Positions 37,571 through 60,364 of a stretch of 64,000 nt of DNA are shown here, one piece after another; the stretch's first letter is position 1, and every line of letters starts with the position of its first letter. Source of the stretch: a virus. Made by a program: the position numbers and the translations under genes. The notes below the pieces were generated by a model. The model was not told where the DNA came from. It saw only the letters and a list, made by a program, of their open reading frames with translations, and searched no databases. Where the stretch lies: UHGV virus genome UHGV-0289908, one strand, 5' to 3'.

Positions 37571-40500
37571 TTATCTAATCTTAGGGCTAGAGAAGCAGTA
37601 TAGAGAAGCAATGTTAAAGTCTTCTTCCTCTTCTTTTGCCTTATTTTCGTGTGTCATAATATACCAAATCATATAGACAAGTGCCGAGTAACGGTCTTTG
37701 TCAATCGACTTGGAATTACGTTTTACCGTCAGCTTCCCTCCATTTAGCTGTTCAAGACTTAAGTTAGCTATCTCTTCGATAAGTAGCTCTGTCTGAACAT
37801 GAGGGAGCACTGTGCTCTTTAAGAAGTCTTGGTCTGAGTTGGCAACTACGTTCTGGTCTACTTTCTCAAGTAGCTGTAGCGTTCCATTCTCAACTAAGTT
37901 CATAAAGTTAACAATAATGTCAGTATTCAGACCTTGAGCCTGTAAAGCCCAAACACATTTTAATGCTTCTGCTTCGTCTGACTCATGTTCTGTATTGATT
38001 GTGTCGAACGCAATTAACTCTTCACCTGTTATCGGGTCAATGTGAAGTTTCATTATCTCGTCAAGTAGTCCTACGCCTAATCCGTTAATATCTATGACAA
38101 CGGTTACAGCTTTGTATAGCTTCTGTAGTCGCTTAACTGCAATGGCTTGCCCAGTGAAGTTTGTGCCGTTAGGCAGGTTGACAATGTTGACAATCTGAAT
38201 ATGATTAACCTTGTCTTTTTTATCTCGTTTAACCTTACCTACTACAATAGAGGTCTGGTTGTTGTTCGTCTTTGTAGAGCGAGCCACATCGACTCCAATA
38301 TAGTATTCGCTCTTCCCGTCAGACTTTAGCTCTGCCTTTGGAAGAGTTCGGATGTTGAATAGCTTATTTAAGTCGATGATACATGAGTCGGACGAGCCCA
38401 CCCAACGGGATTCGTAGTTAGTTGCGAAGAATGTCGGAGATAGTTTCTCCTTCTTGGCAAGTAACTGTGAACGTGTCTCTCCACGTCCATACTCGCAGGC
38501 AAGCTCCCAAGAGCTACCCAATACAATTTTACCTTTTAACTCTGCCATCTCTTTGACCATTGCTAAACAACGCTCATACTCAGTGTTCTTGAAGTATGCT
38601 GTTGTTAAGAAGTGGATTTGACCATTCATTTCACAAGGGTCTACTTGCGGATTGTAACCAATAGTACGACGAGGTACGTTGACGATTGGTTCAAGGGCAT
38701 CAGAGAAGACGAAGTCGTTAAGTAAGGCAGCCTCTTCCATCATCAAACGATGGCGACGCTTACCCTTACTTGACTGTGCATTGGCAAGAGTGCTGATAGT
38801 ACTTCCACTTGTGAAGTGAATCTCGGCATTATCTTTTGAGAATTGTGGCTTACCTACAATCTCCGCTCCGATAAGAGGGAAGAATCGCACAATCTCACTG
38901 TGTTTCTCTTCAACTAATCCTGCGGCTGCTTGCATGGTCTGAGCCGACATAGATAGGTTGATATTTGGATAGAGAATAGCTGTTACATAGAGTGCTAACA
39001 ACTCTGTAAATGTATTGTGACTAACTAATCCATTTGACACAAATGAATGAGTGTTGTCTAATGACAAGTCATACACATGAGCCTTAGAATCTTTAATGGT
39101 CTTAATCTTTGAATAGAAGTAATTTTCACACTGCAAAGATTTAAAATGCTCACAGTGTTTTGCTTCATGAAAGCGTTCATGATTTAACATTTGGTTTAAT
39201 TTTTTATAAGTGAATAAACCACCTTTGTTTGCCACTTGATATAGAGGATGACTTGATTTATTAACATTCTCCCCTATTGATTCATAGAACTCTCTAATCT
39301 TAGACTGCTGATTTGGAATAATGTCTTTTATGGTTCTTCCTTGATACTCTTTGCAGCGTTGTTCTAACAATTCTTGTTTTCTTTGACAAGAGAATCCTAT
39401 TTCATCTCTGAATTTTAGTATGTTACTTCCCGTGATGGTAATAATGTAAGATTTCGTTTGATACTGTTTGCTTATCTTTGTTCGTCTGTTTGAAATAATT
39501 CCCAAGTTCAACAATAGTGTTTGAACCTGTTTAGACATTTTTTCAGAAGCTGTGCAGAATGAAACAGCTCTGCTCTCCACTCCACCGTCTGTATCAAATA
39601 ATCCTTGCAAACATTTCACCACATATTTTTTCGGTGCTTCTAAAATAATGTTGGGGATAACCTTGGTAAAGGCATCTGACTGCGACAAACCAAGTTGTCT
39701 AAAGTATTCACGAACATATTTGCCGTTGACGACATAATCTATGCCTGTTTTACGCTGTTTAACCTCTACTCCTATGACATTGTTCATAAAAGAGTGGTAG
39801 CGTTCCACCATATCTTGGTCTTTTGATGTAAAGAGGATGATGTTATCTCTTGTCAAGCAGCCATCTCCTAAAAGATAGCCAATTATCAGAGCTAAGTCCT
39901 CAGTTAATTCCGTCGGAGTGTTGCATTTGTTTTTTTCAATTTTCCATTTAGAGTCTCCACCAAAAGAATTTAACCACGAGTGCATATCAAAAGTCAATTT
40001 GGTTCTGCTACCCCAAACATTATCTCCTCGGCTTGTGATTAAATAATCTCCGACATGTAAATCCTCTGTTCGTTTCCAGTCAATATTTCCATCTGTTGTC
40101 ATAACTAGCACGGGGTGGTTTAACGAAGGTTCAATTTCAATACCTTCCTCGGTATATATTTTCTTTGTGTCCTTATATCCACTATACACCCCTGCAATGA
40201 CATTCTCCATCTGTTTATGACGATTGCTCACTGTCATTTGTTTAGGAATTATGTATGTTTCAACATTATCATCTTGATAATTAAAGTACGACCCAATCTC
40301 TTTAACTCCCTCGTTTGTTAAAATTAATGTATCGCCAGATACACATTTTCCATATCCACGTGGGAATACCCCGTAGACAGAAGCGAAACGGACTAGAACA
40401 CGAATGAACACTCGTTGGTCTAAGTCGAGTCGGATACCCCCTGTCTCGGGCGTAATTAGGTCGAGAAAGAGGTCGGGGAAAAAGCGAGCCCACGAAATGA

Positions 40501-40621
40501 ACTCTACCCATTTATCTAAATTCTGTTGAAATTTATCTCCATCTGGGTTAGAATAATATGGTATCCCAGTTTTTGGATTGATTACTTTTTCAATAATCTG
40601 CTTGGCTTCTTCTTTATTCAT
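37571..40621 (-). CDS. Terminase large subunit precursor (1016 aa) containing a 444-aa intein
   Basis: Exteins join to give the P-loop FPRGYGK|TFTELL (Walker A GxGKT). Nuclease-domain-like C-terminal half. 572 aa once the intein is removed. Confidence 0.8.
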   Translation of the reverse strand: MNKEEAKQIIEKVINPKTGIPYYSNPDGDKFQQNLDKWVEFISWARFFPDLFLDLITPETGGIRLDLDQRVFIRVLVRFASVYGVFPRGYGKCVSGDTLILTNEGVKEIGSYFNYQDDNVETYIIPKQMTVSNRHKQMENVIAGVYSGYKDTKKIYTEEGIEIEPSLNHPVLVMTTDGNIDWKRTEDLHVGDYLITSRGDNVWGSRTKLTFDMHSWLNSFGGDSKWKIEKNKCNTPTELTEDLALIIGYLLGDGCLTRDNIILFTSKDQDMVERYHSFMNNVIGVEVKQRKTGIDYVVNGKYVREYFRQLGLSQSDAFTKVIPNIILEAPKKYVVKCLQGLFDTDGGVESRAVSFCTASEKMSKQVQTLLLNLGIISNRRTKISKQYQTKSYIITITGSNILKFRDEIGFSCQRKQELLEQRCKEYQGRTIKDIIPNQQSKIREFYESIGENVNKSSHPLYQVANKGGLFTYKKLNQMLNHERFHEAKHCEHFKSLQCENYFYSKIKTIKDSKAHVYDLSLDNTHSFVSNGLVSHNTFTELLALYVTAILYPNINLSMSAQTMQAAAGLVEEKHSEIVRFFPLIGAEIVGKPQFSKDNAEIHFTSGSTISTLANAQSSKGKRRHRLMMEEAALLNDFVFSDALEPIVNVPRRTIGYNPQVDPCEMNGQIHFLTTAYFKNTEYERCLAMVKEMAELKGKIVLGSSWELACEYGRGETRSQLLAKKEKLSPTFFATNYESRWVGSSDSCIIDLNKLFNIRTLPKAELKSDGKSEYYIGVDVARSTKTNNNQTSIVVGKVKRDKKDKVNHIQIVNIVNLPNGTNFTGQAIAVKRLQKLYKAVTVVIDINGLGVGLLDEIMKLHIDPITGEELIAFDTINTEHESDEAEALKCVWALQAQGLNTDIIVNFMNLVENGTLQLLEKVDQNVVANSDQDFLKSTVLPHVQTELLIEEIANLSLEQLNGGKLTVKRNSKSIDKDRYSALVYMIWYIMTHENKAKEEEEDFNIASLYCFSSPKIR
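39014..40345 (-). mobile_element. Intein with a LAGLIDADG homing-endonuclease domain, inserted in the terminase P-loop
   Basis: Begins Cys (CVSGDTLILTNEG, block A) immediately after GYGK. Ends ..VSHN followed by Thr. LAGLIDADG blocks LLGDGCL and LFDTDGGV. Codon boundaries were verified on the DNA (TGT at 40343-40345, CAC AAT then ACA at 39011-39019). Confidence 0.8.
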
Positions 40622-43969: not shown

Positions 43970-44046
43970 TGGGGTTTCCTGTTGGATTCGAACCAACGAT
44001 AGCTCGGTTATGAGCCGAGAGCTTTGACCGACTAAGCTAAGGAAAC
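43970..44046 (-). tRNA. tRNA-Met (anticodon CAT; could be an initiator, elongator or lysidine-Ile type), CCA encoded
   Basis: Hand-folded reverse complement: acceptor GTTTCCT/AGGAAAC, D stem GCTT/AAGC, anticodon stem CTCGG/CCGAG with loop CTCATAA, T arm GTTGG-TTCGAAT-CCAAC, then C-CCA. Confidence 0.75.
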
Positions 44047-44424
44047 AAAATAAAAAGAATGACCCTCATGACAGCCACGTGGATAGCAGGAGAAAGAGTT
44101 TCAGCTCCCTTAGCCATTACTCGTGGATTTTTATGTAAGTTTAAAGTATCATCTTTCAGCTTTGTAGTATAAATAGCTTTGAAGTTTCAACTTTCAACTT
44201 TAAACCTTCAACTTTGAGCTTTTCCCATGTATAAGTATTTACCCTTGCTCCGACGACTCTCTGCGTCTAGCCGTAAATCTTCCATTTATCTGTATTGTTC
44301 TATAGATAAGCACTTTTGCCCAATATAAGTAGAAAGTAACGATTTATTAACCCAAAACCGTTGGAAAGGGGAATCTCTCTTTGTGCCACTTCGTCACAAG
44401 GGTCATATTATTTATCTAGTCAAA

Positions 44425-45057
44425 TTAGTCTTCAATTACAATCTTAGTGATTGCATTTGAGACTGTTAAAGCAGTGTCAATCTCTAACTCGAAGTCTAAG
44501 ATTTCTTGCTCACGTTTTTCGATTAAGTCACGTAACCCTAATGGGTCTACTAAATCCCAACCGTTTTTGTCACGATATGACTTTTCAAAAGAAGTGATGA
44601 ACTCATCCCTCTTGTTTGCTAAGTCTCCGCTTGCCATAGCCAACACTTGACGTTGGATATAGTCTTCGACTTTATCGTTCTCACGTGAAACTTTTGTTTC
44701 TGCATTGCGAAGAGCCTGCTTCATGCAAGCTAACACTTGTTTTTCGCTCTCAATGGTACGCTTGCGGTCAATGGCTGTCATCACTGAATAAGTAACTCCT
44801 GCAACCTCAATCATTGTTTGAGCGTTGGATGTCATGATGGCATGTTTTAATTGTTGCTGACGTTTTAATAAAGCGTCCGCAGAGTCCATGATTGTTTTAG
44901 CACGCACTGCAAAGTCTGCTACAGGTTCACGAGTTTCAGAAACTCTGTTCTCAGAATTCTTGCGTGTTCCAATGATACGGAAGTCTGATAATCGTTTGTC
45001 AATACGGCTCTCTAAGGTATTTAACTCGTTTAAAGCTCTTTGAACTGTCATTTCCAT
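44425..45057 (-). CDS. Hypothetical protein (210 aa)
   Basis: ORF from the track. Confidence 0.45.
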   Translation of the reverse strand: MEMTVQRALNELNTLESRIDKRLSDFRIIGTRKNSENRVSETREPVADFAVRAKTIMDSADALLKRQQQLKHAIMTSNAQTMIEVAGVTYSVMTAIDRKRTIESEKQVLACMKQALRNAETKVSRENDKVEDYIQRQVLAMASGDLANKRDEFITSFEKSYRDKNGWDLVDPLGLRDLIEKREQEILDFELEIDTALTVSNAITKIVIED

Positions 45058-45098
45058 ATGTATAACATCCCCTTTAAAATAAGTTTTTAAAATCGTTA

Positions 45099-45172
45099 TG
45101 GTGCTCCTACTCAGAATTGAACTGAGATTTCATCATTACCATTGATGTGTTCTGCCATTGAACTATAAGAGC
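45099..45172 (-). tRNA. tRNA-Thr (anticodon GGT), CCA encoded
   Basis: Reverse complement: acceptor GCTCTTA/TAGGAGC, D stem GTTC/GAAC, anticodon stem CATCA/TGATG with loop ATGGTAA, T arm CTCAG-TTCAATT-CTGAG, then A-CCA. Confidence 0.7.
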
Positions 45173-45218
45173 ATTTGTGGGAGGAATCCCACAGACTTTT
45201 ACCTGCATTCTTCCATTT

Positions 45219-45310
45219 TGGCGGACAGGGTGGAATTCGAATCCACGCACGACTAAAAGCCGTCTAATGCCTTAGCAGGGCACCCTCTTAAGCCACTTGA
45301 GTACCTATCC
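45219..45310 (-). tRNA. tRNA-Ser (anticodon GCT), class II with a long variable arm, CCA encoded
   Basis: Reverse complement: acceptor GGATAGG/CCTGTCC (one G-U pair), anticodon stem GTGCC/GGCAT with loop CTGCTAA, ~20-nt variable arm, T arm GTGGA-TTCGAAT-TCCAC, then G-CCA. Confidence 0.65.
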
Positions 45311-45417: not shown

Positions 45418-46524
45418 CTAGTAGTTCATTCCTTCAACAGAATAATTATACTCGTCTAAGAACGTATTCAAGTCATCAAGTGAAGATGGCACTGCCACTG
45501 CTCCACACTTGACCTGTTCCATTGCTTCGTCAACTTTTGTGATGGTATCTTCTGTTAAGTTTGGATTTTCCACTGGTAATCCAACACCATCCGCTTTGAT
45601 ATCCATTACAATCGTTTCTCCACCTTTGAAAGTGTTGTTTGCATGGTTTTCCACATGCTCATATGAAGCTCGTCCTAAATTCTTCATGGCAGATGTCAAG
45701 ATGACCGAACTACCATTGGAAATCAATCCTTCTGAATATTGGTCGATGTCAACTCCAACAATGTAAACGCTATCTCCAGACTCTGCTCGGCTCTTTGCTT
45801 CATTAATAGCTCCAACTCCGACTCCACCTGCTGCTTGCATGATAATGTCTGCTCCTTTATCATACATTGCTCCTGCAATAGCCTTTCCTGCGTCTACATC
45901 TGTGAATGTACCTTGATATAAATAGTCAATCACTTCAACATCTGTTCCGTAGATTGCATTGGCATAAGCCACACCTGCTACAAATCCCCATCCTAATTTT
46001 TGAACCGCAGGAACTTTCATTCCTCCAATGAATCCAACTTTGCCCGTTTGTGATTGTAAAGCTGACGCAACTCCCGTTAAGAAGCCTGCTTCATGTTCTG
46101 TGAAGAATACTGAGACGACATTGTCTCCAACTTCATAGTCCGACCCCACTAATGGAGTTCCATCAATCAATACAAAGTTGATGTCTGGGTAAATGGCTTG
46201 GGCTTGCCCTATGGCTTCTTCAAACTTGAATCCTGCCACAACAATGACCTCATTGCCTGCCATTACCAGATTATCAATGGCATTCATATAGTCTTGAGTT
46301 GACTCTCCGCTTGGTTGGATATATTGAATTTCTACGTTCTCATTATCTGCTTGATATTCCAATATTCCTTCCCAAGTCCCTTGGTTGAATGATTTGTCAT
46401 CAATAGTTCCAGAATCTGTAACCATCCCAACTTTTAATGTTGACTCAGATGGGGCAATCTCTTTTTTGCTACAACCGATTAGTGTGAATGCACACACTGC
46501 CAATAATAGTGTAAACTTTTTCAT
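45418..46524 (-). CDS. BMP-family (PnrA/TmpC/Med-like) nucleoside-binding lipoprotein, 368 aa from the corrected start
   Basis: Track ORF 45418..46569. A strong RBS GAGGAGGAAG lies 8 nt before the ATG at 46524. Signal peptide MKKFTLLLAVCAFTLIGC with lipobox LIGC. N-terminus KVGMVTDSGTIDDKSFNQGTWEGI matches the BMP-family signature. Confidence 0.75.
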   Translation of the reverse strand: MKKFTLLLAVCAFTLIGCSKKEIAPSESTLKVGMVTDSGTIDDKSFNQGTWEGILEYQADNENVEIQYIQPSGESTQDYMNAIDNLVMAGNEVIVVAGFKFEEAIGQAQAIYPDINFVLIDGTPLVGSDYEVGDNVVSVFFTEHEAGFLTGVASALQSQTGKVGFIGGMKVPAVQKLGWGFVAGVAYANAIYGTDVEVIDYLYQGTFTDVDAGKAIAGAMYDKGADIIMQAAGGVGVGAINEAKSRAESGDSVYIVGVDIDQYSEGLISNGSSVILTSAMKNLGRASYEHVENHANNTFKGGETIVMDIKADGVGLPVENPNLTEDTITKVDEAMEQVKCGAVAVPSSLDDLNTFLDEYNYSVEGMNY

Positions 46525-46543
46525 GGGTGTTCTTCCTCCTCGT

Positions 46544-46765
46544 TTACATAAAGCAGTCGTCAGTTGCAACTTCTTCGTCTAAATCTTTCTCAGCTTTTGC
46601 TTGGAATGATAATACTCCGTGTTTGTTATCAGCGTTTGCTAATAAATCTTGGATGAAGCAAACTCCTTCATCTTCTGTTTCGATTGTCATGTCGTCAACA
46701 TTTAAAGTCCCAGTGACTTTGATGGTATGAGTTTCGACAATCTTTTCTTGAATTGATTTTGCCAT
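46544..46765 (-). CDS. Hypothetical acidic protein (73 aa)
   Basis: ORF from the track. Overlaps only the spurious N-terminal extension of the lipoprotein ORF. Confidence 0.4.
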   Translation of the reverse strand: MAKSIQEKIVETHTIKVTGTLNVDDMTIETEDEGVCFIQDLLANADNKHGVLSFQAKAEKDLDEEVATDDCFM

Positions 46766-48067: not shown

Positions 48068-50821
48068 CTACTCTTCCTCCTTGAAATGCTTTGACCGTTT
48101 TGTGTGCATAGTAAATGTCATTCCTTTAAATTCAAATTCCCCTGTTGCTGACTGAATTGGATATGAGATTTGCCCTTGGTTTCTTTTCAGTAAGTTTTTA
48201 ATAATCTGTTCTCCGCACACATTCCATACGACATATTTTGACTTGTTTGAAGAATAACAAATATCAATCATAATATTGCATAAAGTTTCCTCATTGGTGC
48301 ATACTACAAGCAGGTCATTTTTAAATCTCTCTGTTAAGCGATTTTCAATGTCTGCTCGTTCATTTGAGGACATCTTCTGTTTAACCGATGTCTGATAGAA
48401 CTTCTTAAGGTCGTCAATGTACTGCTCGTACAATGCAGCAACCTTCTTAGCCATACTACGTTTGTATTCAACATTAGGCGATTTCAGAATTTCTTTGTCG
48501 AACTCTGTCTTGCGTGTGTCGAGCTTGACTTGCTGAAACACCTCTTCAACGTGCCAACAGATTTTGTTCATCAGACAAGCTGTCTCGTCTATAGGAAGTT
48601 GCTTTTTGAAGAAGTGAAGAGATTTTTCTTCCTCTTCTGTTCTGTCTGTTGACGCAATGATTTCGTCCATTGACTTCTTGAACTTGCGTCGGCAACGAAT
48701 GTTCTCACTCTTCACATAATCCATGTAATCCTTGCGTAGCTTTGGATAGATGTAAGTGAAGAAATATGGTTTTTTATCTGCCACTAATTGACGATTAAAC
48801 TCTTTAAAAGCGACTACCTCTTCCGAGTCTGTGTCCGAAGGCATTAAAGGTTGATAGCTTATCCATGACTTAGGAATCCCACCAGAGGTTTCAATCCCTT
48901 TTGCTACGTCAATACTTTCTTGACTGTGTAGAATGGAAGACATAATTCGATAATCCAACTCTTCCCATTCTGGAGTCCCAAAGTCAAATCTCGCTTGAAT
49001 ACTTTGAATACATGTTGCCTTGTTTGTAATAACTCCAACATTCTCTGTCTTGCTTGCGAGCAATAACTTGTCAGAACGAATGTAGTCTTCTTCTGAACAC
49101 ATTTGCTTTTGAGCACTCTTTTGAAGGCAAATAACTGGCAAGGTGTCTCTTATCCCTTTCATAATGTATTCATTGTTTGTAATGAAAACGGTATCACCAT
49201 CACAGTCCATCCCCGATAGTCTAGGACATGTTGCGTCATAGGCATTTAGAACGTACAGCTCCCCAATGTGCTGATACCATTTTGCCATCTCTTCTGTGCA
49301 AACAATTTCAGCCTTACCAATGTTGTTATGAGAGACCATAGGTGCTCGGAACATCCCAACCTCTGACACTCCTTTGTCCACCCAGAATTTAGAATAAAAT
49401 TGTCCAGATTTTAATAACCCTTTCACTTCCATTCCAAACATGTTCTCTGCCAAACATATAGGGTCAATAGTTACCGTTTGGTAATTTCCTTGTACTTTGA
49501 TTTTCCCAATCTTGGTTTCGTCAATTCGTTTCTTTATCATGTTGTTGATAGATGTTCTAACATAAGGGTCGTTGATTAACTCTGGCTCAATCATAAGAGC
49601 ACTAGCGTAATCATATGTATTGATATCTGTATTTTCAGACATCCCAATTCCTTTTAAGTATGCTAAAGATTTTCTAGGGTCTAGCCCTTTTACCTCAATT
49701 ATCTCATCTATCGTCGGTTGAATAAGAGCATATATCTCTTCATCTGTTAAATCTAAAGACTGAATGAACTGATAGTTGGTATCTCGAACCTCGTCCAATA
49801 CCTTTGGAGTTTGCTTTGTGACACTAAATGTGTATTTGTTTTCTACACAACATCTATGATAGTGCTCCCATGAATCATAACTGTCCCACAACTTGAGCAT
49901 TGAGGTTGTGATTACTAGGTCAACATCATCAACATTCCACTCTTTATCCCAAACATCTACAATGACCTCTTTGTTCGCTTTCTCTTTTGCAAACATCTTA
50001 AAGTCGAACACTAGGGCTACTCCTTTTAAGAAAGAATTCCTAATAATAAAACCGCTCGGAGTGTAATCTAGGTGCAGGTCTTTAGCCCAAACCTTCGCAA
50101 ATTCGGGAGAGATAAAACCAGAGCCGTCGCTCGCATTTAGATTCATTTCATAATCTTCAATAACTCGCTTGTGTGGTCGTCCATCTGTTACTTCTCCTAA
50201 TTCGATAACGCTTGTTTTGAAATTCGTTTCCACATCGTGTACAATACAAACGTTAGGGGTGTCGGTTACTGGGTTACTAGCACTCATTGTTAAGCTACGA
50301 TAGGCACTTAATTTTGCAGGAACAAATTCTTTGTCATTACGACCATTGTCAATGCGTCTTTGTAATTCGTCTAAAATGGTTTCGTCCGCATAGAACACTT
50401 CTCCCTTTTTAATTGAAGCAGGAGTGGATAGGAAACGTTTGTATCGTGTTCCATTTATCACAAATCCTCGGTTAATTAAATCATAGTGTTTTGATTTATC
50501 AATCTTGACACACACAAGATACTTCAAGAACAATATTTTGTCCAACTCTTGTTTCAGCGAAACGTATCTTTTACTATTGGCTTTATTATGCCCTTCCTGT
50601 GTTAAGTGAAAAATCTCTCTTTTGAGTTGTTGAACACGCTCTTCTTCATATCCCGTCTTGGCAATGTCGTCAATACTTCTAATAACATACGAAGAAGCAA
50701 GTCCAACAATCCACCCTTCCTCTAATAGTTCGTCCATTTCAAGTTTTAAAGACATGTTAGAGTCAACAATCTCAGTGCTTGGAATTTTTATAATTTTTCT
50801 TATTGAATATAGGTTGCTCAC
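48068..50821 (-). CDS. Single-chain two-barrel (YonO/QDE-1-like) RNA polymerase homologue (917 aa)
   Basis: Beta-prime-type DPBB signature: FRAPMVSH at residues 491-498, then 40 residues later MDCDGD (DxDGD) at 538-543, compared with NRAPTLHR...NADFDGD of multisubunit beta-prime. An upstream beta-type barrel candidate RNSFLKGV (residues 261-268) compares with RHGNKGV. Confidence 0.6.
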   Translation of the reverse strand: MSNLYSIRKIIKIPSTEIVDSNMSLKLEMDELLEEGWIVGLASSYVIRSIDDIAKTGYEEERVQQLKREIFHLTQEGHNKANSKRYVSLKQELDKILFLKYLVCVKIDKSKHYDLINRGFVINGTRYKRFLSTPASIKKGEVFYADETILDELQRRIDNGRNDKEFVPAKLSAYRSLTMSASNPVTDTPNVCIVHDVETNFKTSVIELGEVTDGRPHKRVIEDYEMNLNASDGSGFISPEFAKVWAKDLHLDYTPSGFIIRNSFLKGVALVFDFKMFAKEKANKEVIVDVWDKEWNVDDVDLVITTSMLKLWDSYDSWEHYHRCCVENKYTFSVTKQTPKVLDEVRDTNYQFIQSLDLTDEEIYALIQPTIDEIIEVKGLDPRKSLAYLKGIGMSENTDINTYDYASALMIEPELINDPYVRTSINNMIKKRIDETKIGKIKVQGNYQTVTIDPICLAENMFGMEVKGLLKSGQFYSKFWVDKGVSEVGMFRAPMVSHNNIGKAEIVCTEEMAKWYQHIGELYVLNAYDATCPRLSGMDCDGDTVFITNNEYIMKGIRDTLPVICLQKSAQKQMCSEEDYIRSDKLLLASKTENVGVITNKATCIQSIQARFDFGTPEWEELDYRIMSSILHSQESIDVAKGIETSGGIPKSWISYQPLMPSDTDSEEVVAFKEFNRQLVADKKPYFFTYIYPKLRKDYMDYVKSENIRCRRKFKKSMDEIIASTDRTEEEEKSLHFFKKQLPIDETACLMNKICWHVEEVFQQVKLDTRKTEFDKEILKSPNVEYKRSMAKKVAALYEQYIDDLKKFYQTSVKQKMSSNERADIENRLTERFKNDLLVVCTNEETLCNIMIDICYSSNKSKYVVWNVCGEQIIKNLLKRNQGQISYPIQSATGEFEFKGMTFTMHTKRSKHFKEEE

Positions 50822-51645
50822 TATTTTTTCATCTCCTTTTTCACTCTCTCTTGTACTCCATTTGCCTTTTGATAATACCGCTGTGCCTGTTCTTTGAATT
50901 TGGAAGGAGATTGCTTTTTACGAGAATGAGGTTGACGCTTCTCAAGAAGTCTCATGCAATAACTCGACACATCTTCAATCTCGTTGTTAACAAACTCTTT
51001 TTTCAATGACTCTGCACGGTCGCTTATCAAAGCATTTAAGCATGAACACCATTCGGTGGCGAAGAGCTGTCCTTGATTAAGGATTAAGATACGCTCACTT
51101 ACGTGTTCAACGATTCTTTTGAGCTCTGCTTTTGCAGTACTTGGAATCAAAGGGTCAATCTGTGTTATCATGGTTTTAATCTCCTTATGTCCTAATTGTT
51201 CCTTGTTCGATTCCTCAATCATTCGTTTTATTTCACACAGTCCTATAAACAACTGTAATTGTCGTCGTATGTCTTTTTCGATTTGATTTTGGGTTCTTCG
51301 CTCTTCTGAAACTGAATGGTTGTTTCCTCCAAGTTGAACATTATAGCCCTTGTTGTTGTTGGTTGAGTCGTAATACTCTATCCAGAATTTTTCCTTTTCG
51401 TTTAATTCCGCAACTGTTAGTCCACGGTCAATTATTTCAACAATGAAGTTTTCCGCTCCGTATTTTCTAATGGAGTTTGCTAGGTATAGGTTTACTTTTG
51501 GAGAATTTGCGATTCTCTCCACTCCCACTCCTTTCCCACAATATCTTTTATTGAAGGTCTTTTGGGTTTGTCCTATGTACACTTTTCCGTTTACTTGATT
51601 TGTAACCTTGTATATAATCATGGTTTCCGTTTCAAGTGCTTTCAT
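50821..51645 (-). CDS. GIY-YIG homing endonuclease (about 274 aa from the corrected start)
   Basis: Track ORF 50821..51714. The likely start is the ATG at 51645, after AAGGAG. Motif MIIYKVTNQVNGKVYIGQT...NKRY...YGAENFIVEII...N matches the GIY-YIG catalytic core. The C-terminal half is helical (a likely DNA-binding module). Confidence 0.7.
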   Translation of the reverse strand: MKALETETMIIYKVTNQVNGKVYIGQTQKTFNKRYCGKGVGVERIANSPKVNLYLANSIRKYGAENFIVEIIDRGLTVAELNEKEKFWIEYYDSTNNNKGYNVQLGGNNHSVSEERRTQNQIEKDIRRQLQLFIGLCEIKRMIEESNKEQLGHKEIKTMITQIDPLIPSTAKAELKRIVEHVSERILILNQGQLFATEWCSCLNALISDRAESLKKEFVNNEIEDVSSYCMRLLEKRQPHSRKKQSPSKFKEQAQRYYQKANGVQERVKKEMKK

Positions 51646-51662
51646 CTCTCTACTCCTTTGTC

Positions 51663-51917
51663 TTATCCAATAAAAATAATTTTCACTTCTTCTCCTGTAA
51701 TACGACAGTAACAATCTGCTACTCGACCCGAATCACGGATGAAATCAACAATCGACTCTGTTAATTCTTCAACGTATTCAATCTTGTCTTTTTTTTCGTC
51801 CCCAAATCCTAAGAAGCGGTTCGGGGTAAAATACATACAACCATACCCCACTCTCGTTTGTACCTTGAACTCTTTTCCTACCATGGACGCTAAAACCATA
51901 CTGTCTAGCTTAGTCAT
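51663..51917 (-). CDS. Hypothetical protein (84 aa)
   Basis: ORF from the track. Confidence 0.4.
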   Translation of the reverse strand: MTKLDSMVLASMVGKEFKVQTRVGYGCMYFTPNRFLGFGDEKKDKIEYVEELTESIVDFIRDSGRVADCYCRITGEEVKIIFIG

Positions 51918-53057: not shown

Positions 53058-54128
53058 TCAAGAGGTTTTTCGTTCTTTTAATTTTTCTTTTATTTTGGGT
53101 TCAAGATGGGTTTTTTGAGAGACATCTCCACAGGCTCTAAAAAGGACTTTCCCATCTTCTTTCCACTTTTTTGAGAGAATGCTCCGACTCGCTCTGTCCT
53201 TGTACCCTAACAAGGGCTTATCCTTTTCTACTTTCGATTGTTTGCGAGCAAATGTTTGTTCATTACTGGTTCGAGAGATGGCATTGATTCTGGAAGTCAA
53301 TGAGTCAATGGTAATTCCCAATTCTTGTTGTTGTTGATAACGTTCTTTTACCATTTCTTCATATCCTTCACTGATGGCTATTTCGTAACACTTGTAATAG
53401 AAACGAATTCCAATTTCCTTAAGACCTTCATTCACATTTCGGATATATTCTCCCCAACGTCCATCTGCAATAATGGCACTTTCCCCGCTACGTAAATCGT
53501 ACCCCATGTGTTTCATAGCACCGTGACGAACATTGATGATATTTGCCAAATCTCCCCCAGTTGCTTCATGGTACTCTCCTTGAGTATCACAGAAGACAAT
53601 GATATCCCGTTTAATTAAACGACCTTGACTTTCCATTCTTTTAAACATCGTTTGAATTCTGTCGTCAGCTTTATCATAAGTTCTTTCAAAGAAATATCGA
53701 GTGGCAATAGAAGAAGTACCCAATAACTTCTCTGTGATGTCTTGATTCTTATAGCAAATGTTAAAGTTGTGATTTACATAGCCCAAGGATTGAAATAGAT
53801 TGAGCTTCGTGATTCGTAACACCCTAGAATTCCCGTTAACCTGTTCAGCATTGGCTAATAGGTTAATCATGACTTCCTCGGATAAGTCCTGTAATTCAGA
53901 CCTACGGGTTCTAACAACAGGAGTTGCTTCACCAGTAACTTCGGTAATGATGTATTTATGACCTGCACGTGTCCATTTGCAATATTGCTCCAATGTTTTC
54001 ATTTGTGCTTTCCAACTGTCGCTTCCACCTTTGTAGATTGTCCATCCCATAATAGCACAAATCTCTTTATAGTTCTTAAATTCACGTCCGACCCAAAGTT
54101 CGGATTTATTAACCTTGTACTTACTCAT
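53058..54128 (-). CDS. Hypothetical protein (356 aa), first gene of the leftward gene train
   Basis: ORF from the track, downstream of the leftward promoter at 54273-54301. Confidence 0.5.
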   Translation of the reverse strand: MSKYKVNKSELWVGREFKNYKEICAIMGWTIYKGGSDSWKAQMKTLEQYCKWTRAGHKYIITEVTGEATPVVRTRRSELQDLSEEVMINLLANAEQVNGNSRVLRITKLNLFQSLGYVNHNFNICYKNQDITEKLLGTSSIATRYFFERTYDKADDRIQTMFKRMESQGRLIKRDIIVFCDTQGEYHEATGGDLANIINVRHGAMKHMGYDLRSGESAIIADGRWGEYIRNVNEGLKEIGIRFYYKCYEIAISEGYEEMVKERYQQQQELGITIDSLTSRINAISRTSNEQTFARKQSKVEKDKPLLGYKDRASRSILSKKWKEDGKVLFRACGDVSQKTHLEPKIKEKLKERKTS

Positions 54129-54142
54129 AAATGTACCCCTTT

Positions 54143-54180
54143 CTATGTTTCAAAAAAAGCCCCTATATTAACCCCCCTAA
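54143..54180 (-). promoter_or_regulatory. Leader hairpin plus U-tract (attenuator-like) between the leftward promoter and the first gene
   Basis: Minus-strand RNA reads CTATATTA-GGGGGGT-TAATATAG GGGCTTTTTT. Confidence 0.4.
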
Positions 54181-54272
54181 TATAGTTATTATATTATATA
54201 TTTAGGGGTTTTAAACAGGGGTATTTTTTTTGTTTCAGCTCTGACATCAGTTCGTCAAAACTCGACTTCCTT

Positions 54273-54301
54273 ATTTTATAATATTTAAGCACAGTTGTCA
54301 A
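54273..54301 (-). promoter_or_regulatory. Leftward sigma-A-type promoter
   Basis: On the minus strand: TTGACA (54301-54296), 17 nt, TAAAAT (54278-54273). Confidence 0.5.
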
Positions 54302-54774
54302 TAGTTTTTCGGTACAAAGTTTAACAACTTCGTACCTCACACATCCAAGCTCCGTCACTTCGTTCCTACCTTGTCTGTGGTTATTGACCATGAAATGAAG
54401 TATTATGACCCGTCCGAACTGTGAGGGACGAACAGTTTGGCGGTAAGGTCACAATACGAATGGAATGAGTATTGTGACCGCAAAATCTTTTTATCAATAA
54501 AATTTTTTATTTACCGACATTTTATTGTAATGGGTATGAGCCTTAATATAGGACGATTTAAGAAGGGGTTATTTAGGGTATGGTTAATTTTATATGGGGA
54601 TGTGTAACGTTGCTTAGAAAGGCTTATATTGCGTTATAGGGGTATTGTGAGCCATCTATATAATGATGAATGTGATATATGGGTATGGGGACAAATATAG
54701 AATATGGGGTATTTATACGGAAACACACCCCCTCCCCTTTCCATATATAGAAAATGGTGTTTTTCAATTTTTCA

Positions 54775-54870
54775 CGTTTTTGAGCTATTTTTACGCATTT
54801 TTAACGTTTTTTGCTTAAAATTTGCTATTTTTTGTCGTTTTTCAGTGTTTTTTGTCGTTTTTTGCAAAAT
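54775..54870. repeat. Phased T5-6 tracts at 10-11-bp periodicity (intrinsically bent DNA)
   Basis: cacgttttt gagctattttt acgcattttt aacgtttttt gcttaaaattt gctatttttt gtcgttttt cagtgtttttt gtcgtttttt. Confidence 0.6.
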
Positions 54871-55299
54871 CAAGGTATAGGAAATGGGCTATTTTGACGG
54901 TATTTGGTCAAAATATAGCGACAAGAGGTAAAAAAGTGACCAAAATTGAGTCTGAAACAACGGATTTATCGGGATTTTGTATGAATTGCCCTATATAAAG
55001 GTTGAGATTTGAGGATGATTGTTCCATTTAGAAGGGCTGATTTTGGGGTAAATTAATGGAAATCTCAACCGTTTTAGGATAGTCTGTGGAGCTCCTTATG
55101 CTCTGAGTGGCATGAGAGACTATAGTCCGTAGTTGTCTTTGGACTATTCGGGAGTTTCTTGAGAATAGGTAGAAATACCAGTGGGAGACGAGGAAGTTCT
55201 GGAGATGGATATTCTCTTGAGTTCTTCGGTAGAGACTCGATATCTTTTGTGATTAAAATGGGCAAAAGTATTGATGGCAGTAGTGTTTGGAGGTCTTTT

Positions 55300-55440
55300 G
55301 CAGGGGTTAGAGGGAGCTAGAGGGAGAGGTGAATCTGGAGCGGGAGAGCTGAATGATGTGAGTGGGAAGAGCTTGAGAGGGAGAGGTTTGAGGGGGAAGT
55401 GGTGTGGAAGAGGTGTGGAATGAGCCGTGTGGGAATGGAA
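55300..55440 (+). repeat. Polypurine (GA-rich) tract with multiple G3-5 runs
   Basis: About 140 bp that are roughly 80% purine on the plus strand (gagggagctagagggagaggtgaatctggagcgggagag...gagggggaagtgg). Confidence 0.6.
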
Positions 55441-55704
55441 CAGATACCCGAGTCTGTTCGCATTTTTCGACCTTTTTCGACGTAAACCGACCCCCCTGTA
55501 AGCGTTTTCCAATGACCTATAATGTAGCTTATGAGTCCCCCAATGTGTTCAAATTGTGTCTTTTTTCTGGTTCGACAGGATTCGACATTTTCCCCAATTA
55601 TTCGACATCACTATAAAAGGTATAGCCCAAACTATACCTTTTAGGTAAAACGTTATAACCTTTTTATCGTTCAACCTGTCTATACATGTTGATGAAACAC
55701 ACAA

Positions 55705-55960
55705 ATACTAAACTTTTCCCTTACTATCACTAAACACGACCCACGACCCCCAAAAAGTTTACCTATATTAAACAAAAAGTTTACCCACACTAAACCACAC
55801 AAATATTAAACTTTAGGTTTAAAAATATTAAACCACAAAATTACTAAACAAAAAGTTTAAAATCACTAAACACCCTTATGTTTAGTCACACTAAACACAA
55901 GTTTAAAAATACTAAACATGACCTAGTTTATAAATACTAAACCAATGTTTATAAATACTA
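55705..55960. repeat. ACTAAAC iteron array (about 10 copies) interleaved with AAGTTTA repeats
   Basis: aaatACTAAACtttt, tcACTAAACacg, cacACTAAACcac, attACTAAACaaaa, tcACTAAACaccc, gtttagtcacACTAAACac, aatACTAAACatg, aatACTAAACcaatg, aatACTAAACtcaag. Confidence 0.6.
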
Positions 55961-55968
55961 AACTCAAG

Positions 55969-56012
55969 TTATCCACAAGCTACCCACTTATCCACAACCA
56001 ACCTGTGGATAA
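55969..56012. promoter_or_regulatory. Cluster of three DnaA boxes (TTATCCACA, TTATCCACA, and TGTGGATAA inverted); candidate replication origin
   Basis: Exact 9-mers at 55969-55977, 55988-55996 and 56004-56012, directly following the iteron array and preceding an AT-rich stretch. Confidence 0.6.
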
Positions 56013-56379
56013 CTACAAGCACAAACGCCGATAAAAGTCAAGTAAAAACTTAATTAAATTTTTCACAATGAAACCGTTTTCCTGCAATGCACACTTTTGC
56101 CTATTTGTCAACCCCCTTAAATTACCCCATGTAACCGCTTTATTTCAGCTTTTAAGGGGGGTCGGGTATAATAACCCTCAGAGCGTCTTAAAACGAAAAA
56201 CAGGAATTTCGACACGATTCGACACGCTAAAACGCTTACAATTTTTCTCATGTTGAAATTTGTCGAATTTTGTCACCGACCTTACTTCGTGAAATACTTC
56301 ACAAATCGAACGTGTTCGGTTATGTCCAACTTGTGTTCGAGTTTGTGAAATAATTAATAATGACACACCCGACCCTGTG

Positions 56380-56423
56380 GTATACGTGCGTGCGTGCGTG
56401 CGTACACGTGCGTACACGTATGT
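56380..56423. repeat. Perfect 44-bp alternating purine-pyrimidine tract ((CG/TG)n), Z-DNA-prone
   Basis: gtatacgtgcgtgcgtgcgtgcgtacacgtgcgtacacgtatgt, with strict R-Y alternation checked base by base. Confidence 0.6.
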
Positions 56424-56487
56424 CCATATATAGACACGACCTCAAAAGTTTGTGAAATATTTAATTTAAAAGAACACAAAATGAACA

Positions 56488-56516
56488 CAACTTCACCCCG
56501 TGACCGTGGTAATATA
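56488..56516 (+). promoter_or_regulatory. Rightward promoter P0 (extended -10 TGgTAATAT, weak -35), followed by the conserved ATAAGTGTGCTnAGG start region
   Basis: -10 at 56510-56515. The transcript begins with a GUGCUGAGGGGCAC hairpin. Confidence 0.4.
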
Positions 56517-56604
56517 TAAGTGTGCTGAGGGGCACGGGTTGAGCCCCGACACAATTCGACAAATTATGTCGAAAATAAAAAATTAAATTTTTTTCGAAAA
56601 ACTG

Positions 56605-56633
56605 TTGACGGTAAAATCAACATGTGATAATAT
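56605..56633 (+). promoter_or_regulatory. Rightward promoter PA: TTGACG, 17 nt, TGaTAATAT. The -35 lies inside the palindrome TGTTGAC-N7-TCAACA.
   Basis: -35 at 56605-56610, -10 at 56628-56633, extended TG at 56625-56626. Confidence 0.6.
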
Positions 56634-56639
56634 ATAAGT

Positions 56640-56860
56640 GTGCTAAGGCACAGCATTCAGAATAGGCGTAGAAATTAAAGCCCGCATGTACTTTACGGGA
56701 AACACAAGACGTAAAGGTTGAAGTTAAAAACTCATAGCTAGGCTATGGCACTGGGGAATAATCGCCCCAGGTGAACTGATAGGCTGATAAGTTGGTTCAG
56801 ATTGACGTTCTTTAGTTCGGGGGTTGAAATTCTGAAAAACGAAAAAAATTTTTTAAAAAA
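56640..56860 (+). ncRNA. Candidate structured non-coding transcript downstream of PA (GC-enriched, many local hairpins)
   Basis: No ORF. Hairpins GCCCGCATGTACTTTACGGGAAAC, CATAGCTAGGCTATGG, CTGGGGAATAATCGCCCCAGG and GTTCGGGGGTTGAAATTCTGAA, ending in an A/T run before the next promoter. Confidence 0.3.
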
Positions 56861-56864
56861 ACTG

Positions 56865-56893
56865 TTGACTTCAAAATCAACAGGTGATATACT
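56865..56893 (+). promoter_or_regulatory. Rightward promoter PB: TTGACT, 17 nt, TGaTATACT. The -35 lies in the palindrome TGTTGACttcaaaaTCAACA.
   Basis: -35 at 56865-56870, -10 at 56888-56893. Confidence 0.55.
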
Positions 56894-57263
56894 TGATTTG
56901 TGTTGGTGAGTGTCCTAAGCAACTCGGAGGTCTAGGTGAAACCCCTCATTTGGGATATAGTGAATCGCACAGGGTCATTTCCCCGCGTGGTCACGGTTCT
57001 TTGAAAACATTATACAAAATCATAACGGGATAACCCGCAAGTCGCACGGGATAAGTAGCGAGACCCTAACATTAGAGTCGGATGGGCGAAAAAAGAGGGG
57101 CGATAATAGAGAGTAGTATAGCATAGTGGATTGAGTGATTGAACAGGTGCTAAGGCGGGCGAACGTTTGAAGCCGTTAGAGACTACCCGACCGCACACGT
57201 CACGAATACGGCAACATCCACAGGGACGACCAAAAAATCAAAAATCAAAAAGGACGTGATAAT

Positions 57264-58019
57264 ATGGAAACAATCAAATTTACTCGTAAAAAACAATTCT
57301 TAACATTTTTAAATGAAACGGTATCTACAAAATGTGACGAAATTCGACATCTAGAGTCTATTGTAGACAAAAAGTTTATTGAAACGGTTGGTTACCGATT
57401 AGGAATTGAGTACACTGAACAATACTCTTATGAGGCGATTTTCGCTGGATATGAGGGAGAAAAAGCAATCATCAATAATATCCAACGTTCTACCTTATGG
57501 GATATGTCATATCATGCCAATGGTTTAATGGCAAAAATGAATGAACAAATTGAATACTTGCAATTTGCTATTGAACACGGTAAAAAATTCGCAACTTATG
57601 GCGATTGTATTAAAGCATGGCATGAATTTAAAGATAACGGGACAATTCCGACAGAAATCGACACGGAAAAAGTCGAAAAAGCGGAATCATTTGATGACAA
57701 AACTTGTAAAAATCAAGTAGAATTTTTAAATGTGGTGCAAAAAGATTTACAAAACCACTCAAATCGACAAGCACGAAAAAAGCAACTTAACGAAGAAACG
57801 ATAAAAAACGACACGGAAAATGTGGAAAATGTAGAAAAAACAGAAGAAACAACACCATGTAAAAATTGTAAAACATGTGCAAATTGTTTCCACTGTGAGT
57901 TAGATGGGGAATATGGAGAATGTAAAAATAGGTCGTGCATAGTGAGGAGAAAAGATAGCTGTTCACTGTTCATGTATAAACTTGAGTCAAGCTCCCCAAC
58001 GGGTCACACTAAAACGTAA
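57264..58019 (+). CDS. Early protein (251 aa) with a C-terminal Cys-rich cluster (9 Cys in 35 aa)
   Basis: ORF from the track. The roughly 370-nt GC-rich leader runs from PB. Confidence 0.55.
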   Translation: METIKFTRKKQFLTFLNETVSTKCDEIRHLESIVDKKFIETVGYRLGIEYTEQYSYEAIFAGYEGEKAIINNIQRSTLWDMSYHANGLMAKMNEQIEYLQFAIEHGKKFATYGDCIKAWHEFKDNGTIPTEIDTEKVEKAESFDDKTCKNQVEFLNVVQKDLQNHSNRQARKKQLNEETIKNDTENVENVEKTEETTPCKNCKTCANCFHCELDGEYGECKNRSCIVRRKDSCSLFMYKLESSSPTGHTKT

Positions 58020-59685: not shown

Positions 59686-59692
59686 AAATATG

Positions 59693-59721
59693 TTGACAGT
59701 AAAATCAACATATGATAATAT
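59693..59721 (+). promoter_or_regulatory. Promoter PC: TTGACA, 17 nt, TGaTAATAT. The -35 lies in the palindrome TGTTGACagtaaaaTCAACA.
   Basis: -35 at 59693-59698, -10 at 59716-59721. Followed by ATAAGTGTCAAC. Confidence 0.55.
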
Positions 59722-60290: not shown

Positions 60291-60364
60291 TATTATTATA
60301 CCATGTGACCTATTTAAAATAGGTCGTATGAATATTGACATGATATGTCAAGTTAAAAAATGTG

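Follow-up and report, generated by a model that had tools for sequence, protein, structure and literature searches.

Spo0A is the master regulator of entry into sporulation, and, to our knowledge, phage control through Spo0A boxes (0A boxes) has been elucidated almost exclusively in the small phages of the phi29 family. Six 0A boxes in phi29 repress the early promoters and block activation of the late promoter as well as initiation at the origins; together with parS, these boxes cause the genome to be trapped in the spore (PMC2731898; PMC12991052). Phosphorylated Spo0A (Spo0A~P) binds as a dimer to boxes that are 3 bp apart, giving a 10-bp period (PMC2731898), and Spo0A of Clostridioides recognizes the same core flanked by A/T (PMC3485338). 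At oriC of Bacillus subtilis, binding of Spo0A~P restrains initiation, and the DnaA and Spo0A boxes share one initiation region (PMC5295017). Here, we present an analysis of a control region in a 64,000-nucleotide stretch (the window) of the virus genome UHGV-0289908. This conserved region (54129-57263) comprises 3135 bp without a credible open reading frame (ORF), and a 1.1-kb segment of it, which had been flagged in a preliminary description, is its core. The best combined explanation of this sequence, which we favor with modest confidence, is that it is a conserved control region wired to the sporulation and replication signals of the host.

Iteron origins, such as P1 oriR and those of pPS10 and RK2, combine initiator sites arrayed at intervals of about two helical turns with neighboring DnaA boxes and an AT-rich stretch; in lambda ori, the iterons are palindromic, with dyad symmetry in each repeat. 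A T5-like untranslated region next to the pre-early genes contains repeats, palindromes, and eight DnaA boxes that were described as 'reminiscent of oriC' (bioRxiv 10.1101/866236). The preliminary description had assigned the flagged segment to the first of these types, i.e., a theta-type origin that uses DnaA together with a phage iteron binder, and had suggested that its two repeat families are the sites of two DNA-binding proteins, an initiator and a regulator.

Results

The TTCGACA boxes match the consensus Spo0A box

Homologues of the proteins that flank the control region were found only in Logan and ENA metagenome assemblies. Three of these contigs (L006, L007, and L008) span the whole region and six (L003, L004, L009, L011, L162, and L163) cover part of it; element-by-element conservation was judged in L006, L007, L008, L162, L009, and L011.

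TTCGACA, the first of the two repeat families, reads TGTCGAA on the opposite strand, which is the consensus sequence of the 0A box. In the window, it is present in 20 exact copies compared with 8.9 +/- 2.8 in shuffled sequences. Eight of the 20 (55571, 55581, 55601, 56208, 56218, 56261 on the minus strand, 56555, and 56567 on the minus strand) lie within 1003 bp, where 0.14 are expected (Poisson P ~3e-12), and the copies outside this cluster occur at chance density; the count thereby bears out the local enrichment that the preliminary description had pointed to. At least nine copies had been reported for the ORF-free region; eight are found there, while the ninth (57343-57349) lies inside the first early ORF, 79 nt into it and at an equal offset in L006, L007, L009, L011, and L012. 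Two of three reported pairs with a spacing of exactly 10 bp (55571/55581 and 56208/56218) consist of exact boxes, whereas the third (55466/55476) is made up of one-mismatch copies; L007, L008, L009, and L011 have an exact TTCGACA one 10-bp step further upstream of this third pair. In the window, 3/3 gaps between boxes are multiples of 10 bp, as are 11/13 in L009 and 12/13 in L011, with a P of ~1e-9 to 1e-11 for the phasing in the latter two contigs. The perfect palindrome TTCGACAaattaTGTCGAA between the promoter-like elements P0 and PA is exact as reported. Its half sites are invariant in all relatives and its spacer varies in sequence and in length (4-6 nt), arguing for binding by a protein and against an RNA hairpin.

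In the alignment, the close relatives L006 and L007 are nearly identical, while L008 is only about 70-80% identical. Nevertheless, L008 retains each motif class, i.e., the TTCGAC triplet, the -10-like TATAAT, the TTCGACA boxes, six palindromes of the second repeat family, three DnaA boxes (in an orientation pattern that differs from that of the window), the TTCGACAcgaTTCGACAcg pair with its inverted partner, the purine-pyrimidine tract, P0, and the TTCGACA palindrome (with a 6-nt spacer). L009 and L011 are more distant, and the order of their elements is unchanged. The box clusters are all retained in L006, L007, L008, L162, L009, and L011 despite diverging flanks. This retention of the motif classes despite divergence is strong evidence that the elements are functional.

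The boxes of the window have the characteristics of 0A boxes as known from Bacillus and Clostridioides, i.e., the exact core, pairs with a 3-bp spacer, and A/T-rich flanks; among 64 sites, the core is followed by T in 45/64, and A or T dominates upstream. Three tandem TTCGACA boxes also occur in 23 IMG/VR contigs, which form 17 groups without tblastx similarity to the window at 1e-8. The spacers differ in 15/23 of these contigs, so that only the 7-mer is conserved, and most of the 15 are of low GC content; the boxes are often located a short distance upstream of a ribosome-binding site and its -10 element. As a control, the reversed word gave 9 matches, of which 8 were plain tandem repeats. 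Moreover, the relatives contain consensus sites of other Bacillota regulators. L008 has two perfect LexA boxes and, within its homologous control region (8513-8528), the near-consensus parS TGTTCCACGTGGAACA with 1 mismatch; L009 has three perfect cre sites at places homologous to the one-mismatch cre and Rex-like sites of the window. Each perfect site of the parS, LexA, or cre type is expected <0.01 times per 3 kb (~0.004-0.007 for a perfect cre). We favor a host factor over a private phage protein based on these regulator sites, the boxes in unrelated contigs, the hosts of phages with a related RNA polymerase (see below), and the variable spacer. The consensus used here derives from the literature on Bacillus and Clostridioides; from this comparison, we conclude that the TTCGACA boxes are probably Spo0A sites of the host.

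The preliminary description thus had two repeat families correctly in view but appears to have missed the key identification, in that one of them corresponds to the 0A box of the host, so that no phage-encoded regulator need be invoked for it. More generally, what the eye takes for a "phage iteron" may in fact be a site for a host regulator.

In a separate observation, four unrelated low-GC IMG/VR contigs (L133, L143, L144, and L145) have in common three tandem TTCGACA boxes that directly precede, on the upstream side, a -10 element with a ribosome-binding site and a conserved 56-59-aa ORF beginning MISKILRGKEKD; these contigs apparently represent a distinct family of phage genes under Spo0A control.

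Tandem 0A boxes downstream of the start site repress the abrB promoter of B. subtilis. The box clusters of the window each follow a rightward promoter-like element: the boxes at 55571-55607 are located at about +41 to +77 from the TATAAT at 55518, those at 56208-56267 at about +29 to +88 from the TATAAT at 56167, and the palindrome at about +33 to +51 from P0. The TATAAT at 55518 points rightward to the 55571 boxes and also to the array described below.

A conserved palindrome array lies next to DnaA boxes

The second repeat family had been described as an array of about ten ACTAAAC repeats. Thirteen copies of AYTAAAC are present in 55707-55963; however, they are not direct repeats but the halves of a 17-bp palindrome, GTTTA-N7-TAAAC (consensus AAGTTTAcAAATACTAAAC), and the protein that binds them is therefore probably a dimer. 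The window contains eight of these palindromes compared with 0.1 expected, all of them in the array, and none are found elsewhere in the loci of the relatives. The enrichment expected for this family is thereby confirmed, and the confinement of the motif to the array argues against an operator of a dispersed regulon. From one palindrome to the next, the spacing is 22-38-38-25-21-25-21 bp; it is identical in the window, L006, and L007, and the terminal 21-25-21 is kept in L008, which has six palindromes, while L009 has three. We suggest that the palindromes are probably the sites of a phage-encoded dimeric protein.

The three exact DnaA boxes (TTATCCACA) of the preliminary description were recovered at the same positions, starting 5 bp after the last palindrome. 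There is one other exact copy in the window, and the probability of three in 44 bp is ~2e-11. These boxes are kept in L006, L007, L008, and L162, with rearrangements in L008 and L162. In L009 and L011, three tandem TTCGACA boxes are located between the last palindrome and the sequence "ctatcata", which in the alignment is the slot of the DnaA boxes. The consensus sequences of the DnaA and Spo0A boxes are similar, and the two overlap functionally at B. subtilis oriC (PMC5295017); a swap of DnaA boxes for 0A boxes is, therefore, biologically coherent. Because 0A boxes replace the DnaA boxes in these two relatives, DnaA is not universally required at this slot. Rather, the swap suggests that the slot couples a host regulator of replication or sporulation to the complex formed on the palindromes.

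The AT-rich stretch that had been noted after the DnaA boxes is present but modest (73% A+T), and it is not conserved; only in the window, L006, and L007 does it qualify as a candidate unwinding element. Its weakest 40-mer (56030-56069) belongs to the least stable 1% of the window, but the palindrome array melts more easily still, and more so than any other DNA in the flagged region. Inspection of the sequence after the DnaA boxes showed no run of DnaA-trio-like repeats, an observation to which we give little weight.

A conserved protein of 356 aa is the product of the gene that adjoins the control region on its left, at a distance of 1.6 kb from the array, which is intergenic. The AlphaFold model of this protein (predicted local distance difference test [pLDDT] score 77.7) is a string of tandem winged helices, a predicted fold that resembles RctB and RepA and that we counted in favor of an origin. 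Foldseek searches of this model found nothing significant in the PDB, and matches in BFVD were nearly all uncharacterized phage proteins. Based on the model, we regard the 356-aa protein as a candidate for the protein that binds the palindromes.

Altogether, eight sites at conserved intervals of about two helical turns and three exact DnaA boxes 5 bp from the last of them resemble the layout of an iteron origin. Of the theta-type origin proposed in the preliminary description, this layout stands, while the AT-rich stretch is not conserved and no Pfam or PHROG initiator was found next to the array. The phage replication origin is our leading but tentative assignment for the array, the arguments on the two sides being nearly in balance.

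Alternative explanations

A DNA-binding protein of the phage, either a regulator or a second initiator, could instead use the TTCGACA boxes as its operator or iteron, and their resemblance to the 0A box would then be coincidence or mimicry. What speaks for such a protein comes mainly from L009 and L011, in which the counterpart of the three-box segment at 55571-55607 has grown to ~500 bp of 10-bp units (consensus ATTCGACATT, identified with Tandem Repeats Finder). These two contigs have 22-24 exact boxes in the intergenic region and L009 has 38 in 6.3 kb, including boxes inside early ORFs and on both strands; with ~50 degenerate units, the arrays resemble the cooperative array of a dedicated phage protein, e.g., of the ParR or omega type, more than a typical site of a host regulon, and the number of boxes exceeds that of any Spo0A target known to us. 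A phage protein would also be in line with the conserved box at +79 of the first early ORF. Conversely, an arbitrary 7-mer would be identical to the 0A consensus with a chance of ~1e-4, the spacers of 3 bp are in keeping with Spo0A (PMC2731898), 17 unrelated groups of viral contigs show the same triple arrangement, sites of other host regulators are present in the region, and no DNA-binding family was found among the early ORFs scanned. On these grounds, we consider a phage-encoded protein an unlikely owner of the boxes. It is also a possibility that the boxes are a decoy, which on replicating phage genomes would titrate Spo0A~P and thereby delay or block sporulation until lytic growth is complete. 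The dozens of boxes that L009 and L011 have in arrays phased at 10 bp, some of them inside ORFs and on both strands, cannot all act on promoters, and their number multiplied by the phage copy number would make a large sink; in the lineage of the window, however, there are only 8-11 boxes, all of which lie beside promoter-like elements, and we know of no precedent, making a decoy rather improbable here. The expanded arrays nevertheless keep alive both an array-binding phage protein and a Spo0A~P sponge.

The GTTTA-N7-TAAAC array, in turn, could be a partition centromere or a bank of repressor operators, with the DnaA boxes serving as a regulatory or titration site. Phased arrays of short repeats are typical of type II and III centromeres, and the distantly related phage c-st is a plasmid prophage with TubZ partition; moreover, the candidate unwinding element is not conserved, and the DnaA boxes are dispensable in L009 and L011. 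However, the ORFs scanned on both sides yielded no ParA, ParM, TubZ, or adaptor gene, the array overlaps no promoter-like element, and, unlike the sites of a repressor regulon, the motif occurs nowhere else in 64 kb. We consider a centromere or an operator bank unlikely. The similarity to the T5-like untranslated region introduced above raises a further explanation, in which the region would, like an injection stop, pause or anchor the entering genome, or would mark the genome terminus. Here, too, a 3.1-kb untranslated region abuts small early ORFs, including an ArdA-like gene, and some related Enterocloster phage records start just upstream of the RNA polymerase gene. The L006, L007, and L008 contigs run straight through the region, however, and the DnaA boxes number only three and are missing from L009 and L011, so that this explanation appears very improbable.

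Other features of the control region

The features of the control region are listed in Table 1.

Table 1. Sequence features in and next to the control region, with positions in the 64-kb window
Feature	Position	Strand	Remarks
Gene for 356-aa protein	53058..54128	-	Conserved, no family assignment; adjoins control region
Two 0A-like boxes, TTCGACC (55466) and TTCGACG (55476)	55466..55482	+	One mismatch each, 10 bp apart
cre-like (CcpA) box TGTAAGCGTTTTCC	55497..55510		One mismatch to TGWAANCGNTNWCA; perfect cre at homologous L009 position
-10-like TATAAT	55518..55523	+	Weak -35; invariant in window, L006, L007, and L008; CATAAT in L009; consensus match only
Three exact TTCGACA cores (55571, 55581, 55601)	55571..55607	+	Spaced 10 and 20 bp
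Hairpin AAAAGGTATAG-CCCAAA-CTATACCTTTT	55616..55643		Between 0A boxes and palindrome array; partly conserved
Eight palindromes (55757, 55779, 55817, 55855, 55880, 55901, 55926, 55947)	55707..55963		GTTTA-N7-TAAAC
Four half sites	55707, 55729, 55805, 55843		
Three exact DnaA boxes, 55969(+), 55988(+), 56004(-)	55969..56012		Start 5 bp after last palindrome
AT-rich stretch	56020..56070		73% A+T; candidate unwinding element in window, L006, and L007 only
cre box	56069-56082		One mismatch
-10-like TATAAT in GGGGGGTCGGGTATAAT	56167..56172	+	Conserved in all relatives; rightward; consensus match only
Tandem pair TTCGACAcgaTTCGACAcg (56208, 56218) and inverted TGTCGAA (56261)	56208..56267		Strongly conserved in alignment, L009, and L162
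Rex-like box TCGTGAAATACTTCACAA	56287..56304		One mismatch to TTGTGAA-N4-TTCACAA; weak; not conserved in L008 and L009
Alternating purine-pyrimidine tract, (GTGC/GTAC)n	56380..56423		Z-DNA-prone; ~100 bp upstream of P0
P0, extended -10 TGgTAATAT	56507..56515	+	Full TTGACG-17 upstream of it in L008 and L162
Inverted box pair TTCGACA-aatta-TGTCGAA	56555..56573		31 bp upstream of the PA -35
PA, TTGACG-17-TAATAT with TG	56605..56633	+	Sigma-70/sigma-A consensus match
PB, TTGACT-17-TATACT with TG	56865..56893	+	Sigma-70/sigma-A consensus match

P0, PA, and PB are conserved in the relatives, although all three are consensus matches only. A palindrome, GTTGAC-N7-TCAAC, spans the -35 and spacer of the early promoters PA and PB (56604-56621 and 56864-56881) and recurs at 59692-59709 as well as at 60364 and 61888; with 14 matches compared with 1.7 expected, it may be the operator of a protein that shuts off the early genes. 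The initial transcribed sequence ATATATAAGTGTGCT(G/A)AGG..CAC is common to P0 (56516-56535) and PA (56634-56652); this sequence can form a small 5' stem-loop, which may stabilize the mRNA. The leaders to the first ORF are ~620 nt from PA and ~365 nt from PB and have neither an ORF nor an Rfam match. A scan of 54100-57400 found no Rfam family, even at an E value of up to 1, and after this result we dropped the possibility that the TTCGACA palindrome or the leaders are known RNA elements. The hairpin upstream of the array resembles a bidirectional terminator, and no compensatory changes were found in it among the aligned relatives.

The cre and Rex-like boxes suggest that carbon status and perhaps redox status provide inputs to the control region. 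The position of the purine-pyrimidine tract is conserved, while its length varies from 44 to ~120 bp (L009, 1990-2110; L162, 427-503). In the window, copies of GTTTGTGAAATAWTTAAT flank the tract (56341-56358 and 56448-56465), and at the corresponding flanks L008, L162, and L163 have perfect LexA boxes (CGAACN4GTTCG).

The 3135 bp agree with the 3.1-kb ORF-free region of the preliminary description. The only longish ORF, a minus-strand ORF of 122 aa (55144-55512) on the complement of a purine-rich block, was rejected as coding because, over this segment, the relatives have stops in all frames and frame-breaking indels of 1, 2, 4, 10, and 11 bp.

Two further conserved segments, in the left part of the region, are present in L008, L009, and L011. 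T5-6 tracts phased at ~10-11 bp (54759-54870) predict bent DNA, and a block of ~140 bp (55290-55435) is strongly purine-rich with GAGGGAG-like repeats; a packaging site or a genome terminus is a possible function of these two blocks.

Phage, flanking genes, and host

The control region has no DNA match among INPHARED phages, in near or distant mode, nor among PLSDB plasmids, and the lineage is uncultured. A search of IMG/VR with the flanking proteins and the RNA polymerase gave no match, and a search for the 15-mer TTTTCGACGTAAACC in the same database gave chance matches only. The phage is tailed and has a genome of ~130 kb, about half of which lies within the window. Minus-strand genes, including those for very large structural proteins, fill positions 1 to 54128 and form a leftward late block, which also contains three tRNAs; the rightward early block starts at 57264 with small plus-strand ORFs of unknown function, of which one is ArdA-like (anti-restriction).

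A gene in the late block (48068-50821) encodes a single-subunit RNA polymerase of 917 aa whose homologues, at 22-38% identity, include YonO of SPbeta and proteins of Clostridium phage c-st, Enterocloster phage PMBT24, and others. The named hosts of phages with such homologues are Bacillus, Clostridium, Enterocloster, Thomasclavelia, and Psychrobacillus, the remaining homologues being from contigs without an assigned host in the phage collection. We suggest that the host is probably a low-GC, spore-forming member of the Bacillota. A gene for a Bmp/PnrA-like lipoprotein (45418-46569, minus strand; Pfam E value 1e-68) lies beside three tRNA genes (43970-45310), and its best genomic relative is a protein from a Turicibacter metagenome-assembled genome (58% identity). 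We rejected this gene as a basis for assigning the host because its matches are only ~50-60% identical and spread across Bacillota and Spirochaetes, and are not decisive. No cluster of 0A or DnaA boxes comparable to that in the window was found in two related phages that have been characterized, over the first 24 kb of PMBT24 and the first 14 kb of BUCT082.

The RNA polymerase gene is intact in the window and is preceded immediately upstream by a GIY-YIG endonuclease gene (50821-51714), while in L003 (4102-7862) and L008 (1024-4583) it is split by an HNH/NUMOD4 endonuclease gene. A 1016-aa protein (37571-40621, minus strand) contains an intein with a LAGLIDADG endonuclease domain. A Pistol ribozyme (RF02679; 58357-58423, plus strand) with 60.8 bits compared with a gathering score of 34.5 lies in a gap between early ORFs, and this segment is 85-95% conserved in L006, L007, and L008.

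Discussion

From the motifs together with their enrichment, phasing, and conservation, we infer which proteins bind and what their binding would do. As Spo0A~P accumulates in the host, dimers would bind the boxes downstream of the promoter-like elements at 55518 and 56167 and of P0 and block rightward transcription into the early genes and, for the element at 55518, also into the palindrome array. Thereby, lytic development would pause in cells that are committing to sporulation, as in phi29. A dimeric phage protein, perhaps the 356-aa protein, would bind the palindromes as the iterons of the origin, while the DnaA boxes that abut the last iteron would recruit or sense DnaA of the host; this slot would then couple the host regulator of replication or, in the relatives with the swap, of sporulation to the iteron complex.

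Several observations weigh against this combined explanation. On the side of the origin, L009 and L011 lack DnaA boxes, the AT-rich stretch is absent in L008, L162, L009, and L011, and no Pfam or PHROG initiator was found adjacent to the array. GC and AT skews flip sign at ~54-55 kb, and the cumulative GC skew turns here; however, this turn coincides with the switch in the direction of transcription and is, therefore, not independent evidence for an origin. On the side of Spo0A, the promoters near the boxes rely on consensus matches only, a phage-encoded protein that binds arrays would also account for the ~50 degenerate 10-bp units in L009 and L011, and no parS with <=2 mismatches was found in the 64-kb window, which holds about half of the genome. 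Moreover, the sole hint at a specific host is the weak Turicibacter match of the Bmp gene at 58% identity.

We speculate further, and regard it as unlikely in this full form, that each lineage ties its iteron origin and early promoters to a host master regulator of its choice by exchanging DnaA boxes for 0A boxes at a single fixed slot, the amplified arrays of 0A boxes acting as a cooperative Spo0A~P switch or sponge. With such a switch or sponge, and with the same low expectation on our part, the phage would read or override the sporulation decision, and sites for LexA, CcpA, Spo0J, and possibly Rex would plug in modularly. If the combined explanation is correct, the host signal known from phi29 also serves, with a much richer architecture, a large group of uncultured phages that are unrelated to phi29, infect spore-forming Bacillota, and are probably gut-associated. 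The sequences described here would in that case be material for testing sporulation sensing, survival in spores, titration of Spo0A, and the exchange between DnaA and Spo0A at a phage origin.

As in T5 (bioRxiv 10.1101/866236), repeats, palindromes, and DnaA boxes are found in a large untranslated region that borders the first-expressed genes, but the locus has three DnaA boxes rather than eight and sites for regulators of a Gram-positive type. With iteron origins, it shares the array of sites about two turns apart and the DnaA boxes, as well as the AT-rich stretch in the lineage of the window and the dyad symmetry of lambda; in contrast, there is no recognizable Rep or O-type gene, some relatives are without DnaA boxes, and the AT-rich stretch is not conserved. 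At B. subtilis oriC, the two types of boxes overlap, whereas here DnaA and 0A boxes do not overlap but are swapped between lineages at one slot next to the iterons. The closest similarity is to phi29 and Nf, in which TGTCGAA boxes, often in pairs with a 3-bp spacer, are also located at early promoters and by the origins; moreover, the relative L008 carries a parS, as does phi29, and the outcome proposed here, a halt of lytic growth in sporulating cells with trapping of the genome in the spore, would be that of phi29 (PMC2731898). However, the phage analyzed here is a tailed phage of ~130 kb with a YonO-type RNA polymerase and without terminal-protein origins, the window has no parS, the boxes lie mostly downstream of promoter-like elements and together with iterons and DnaA boxes, and the arrays of the relatives have dozens of boxes compared with six in phi29. 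What would be new relative to phi29-type control by Spo0A is, therefore, its occurrence in an unrelated large phage, its combination with iterons and DnaA boxes, and the lineage-specific swapping and amplification of the sites for host regulators.

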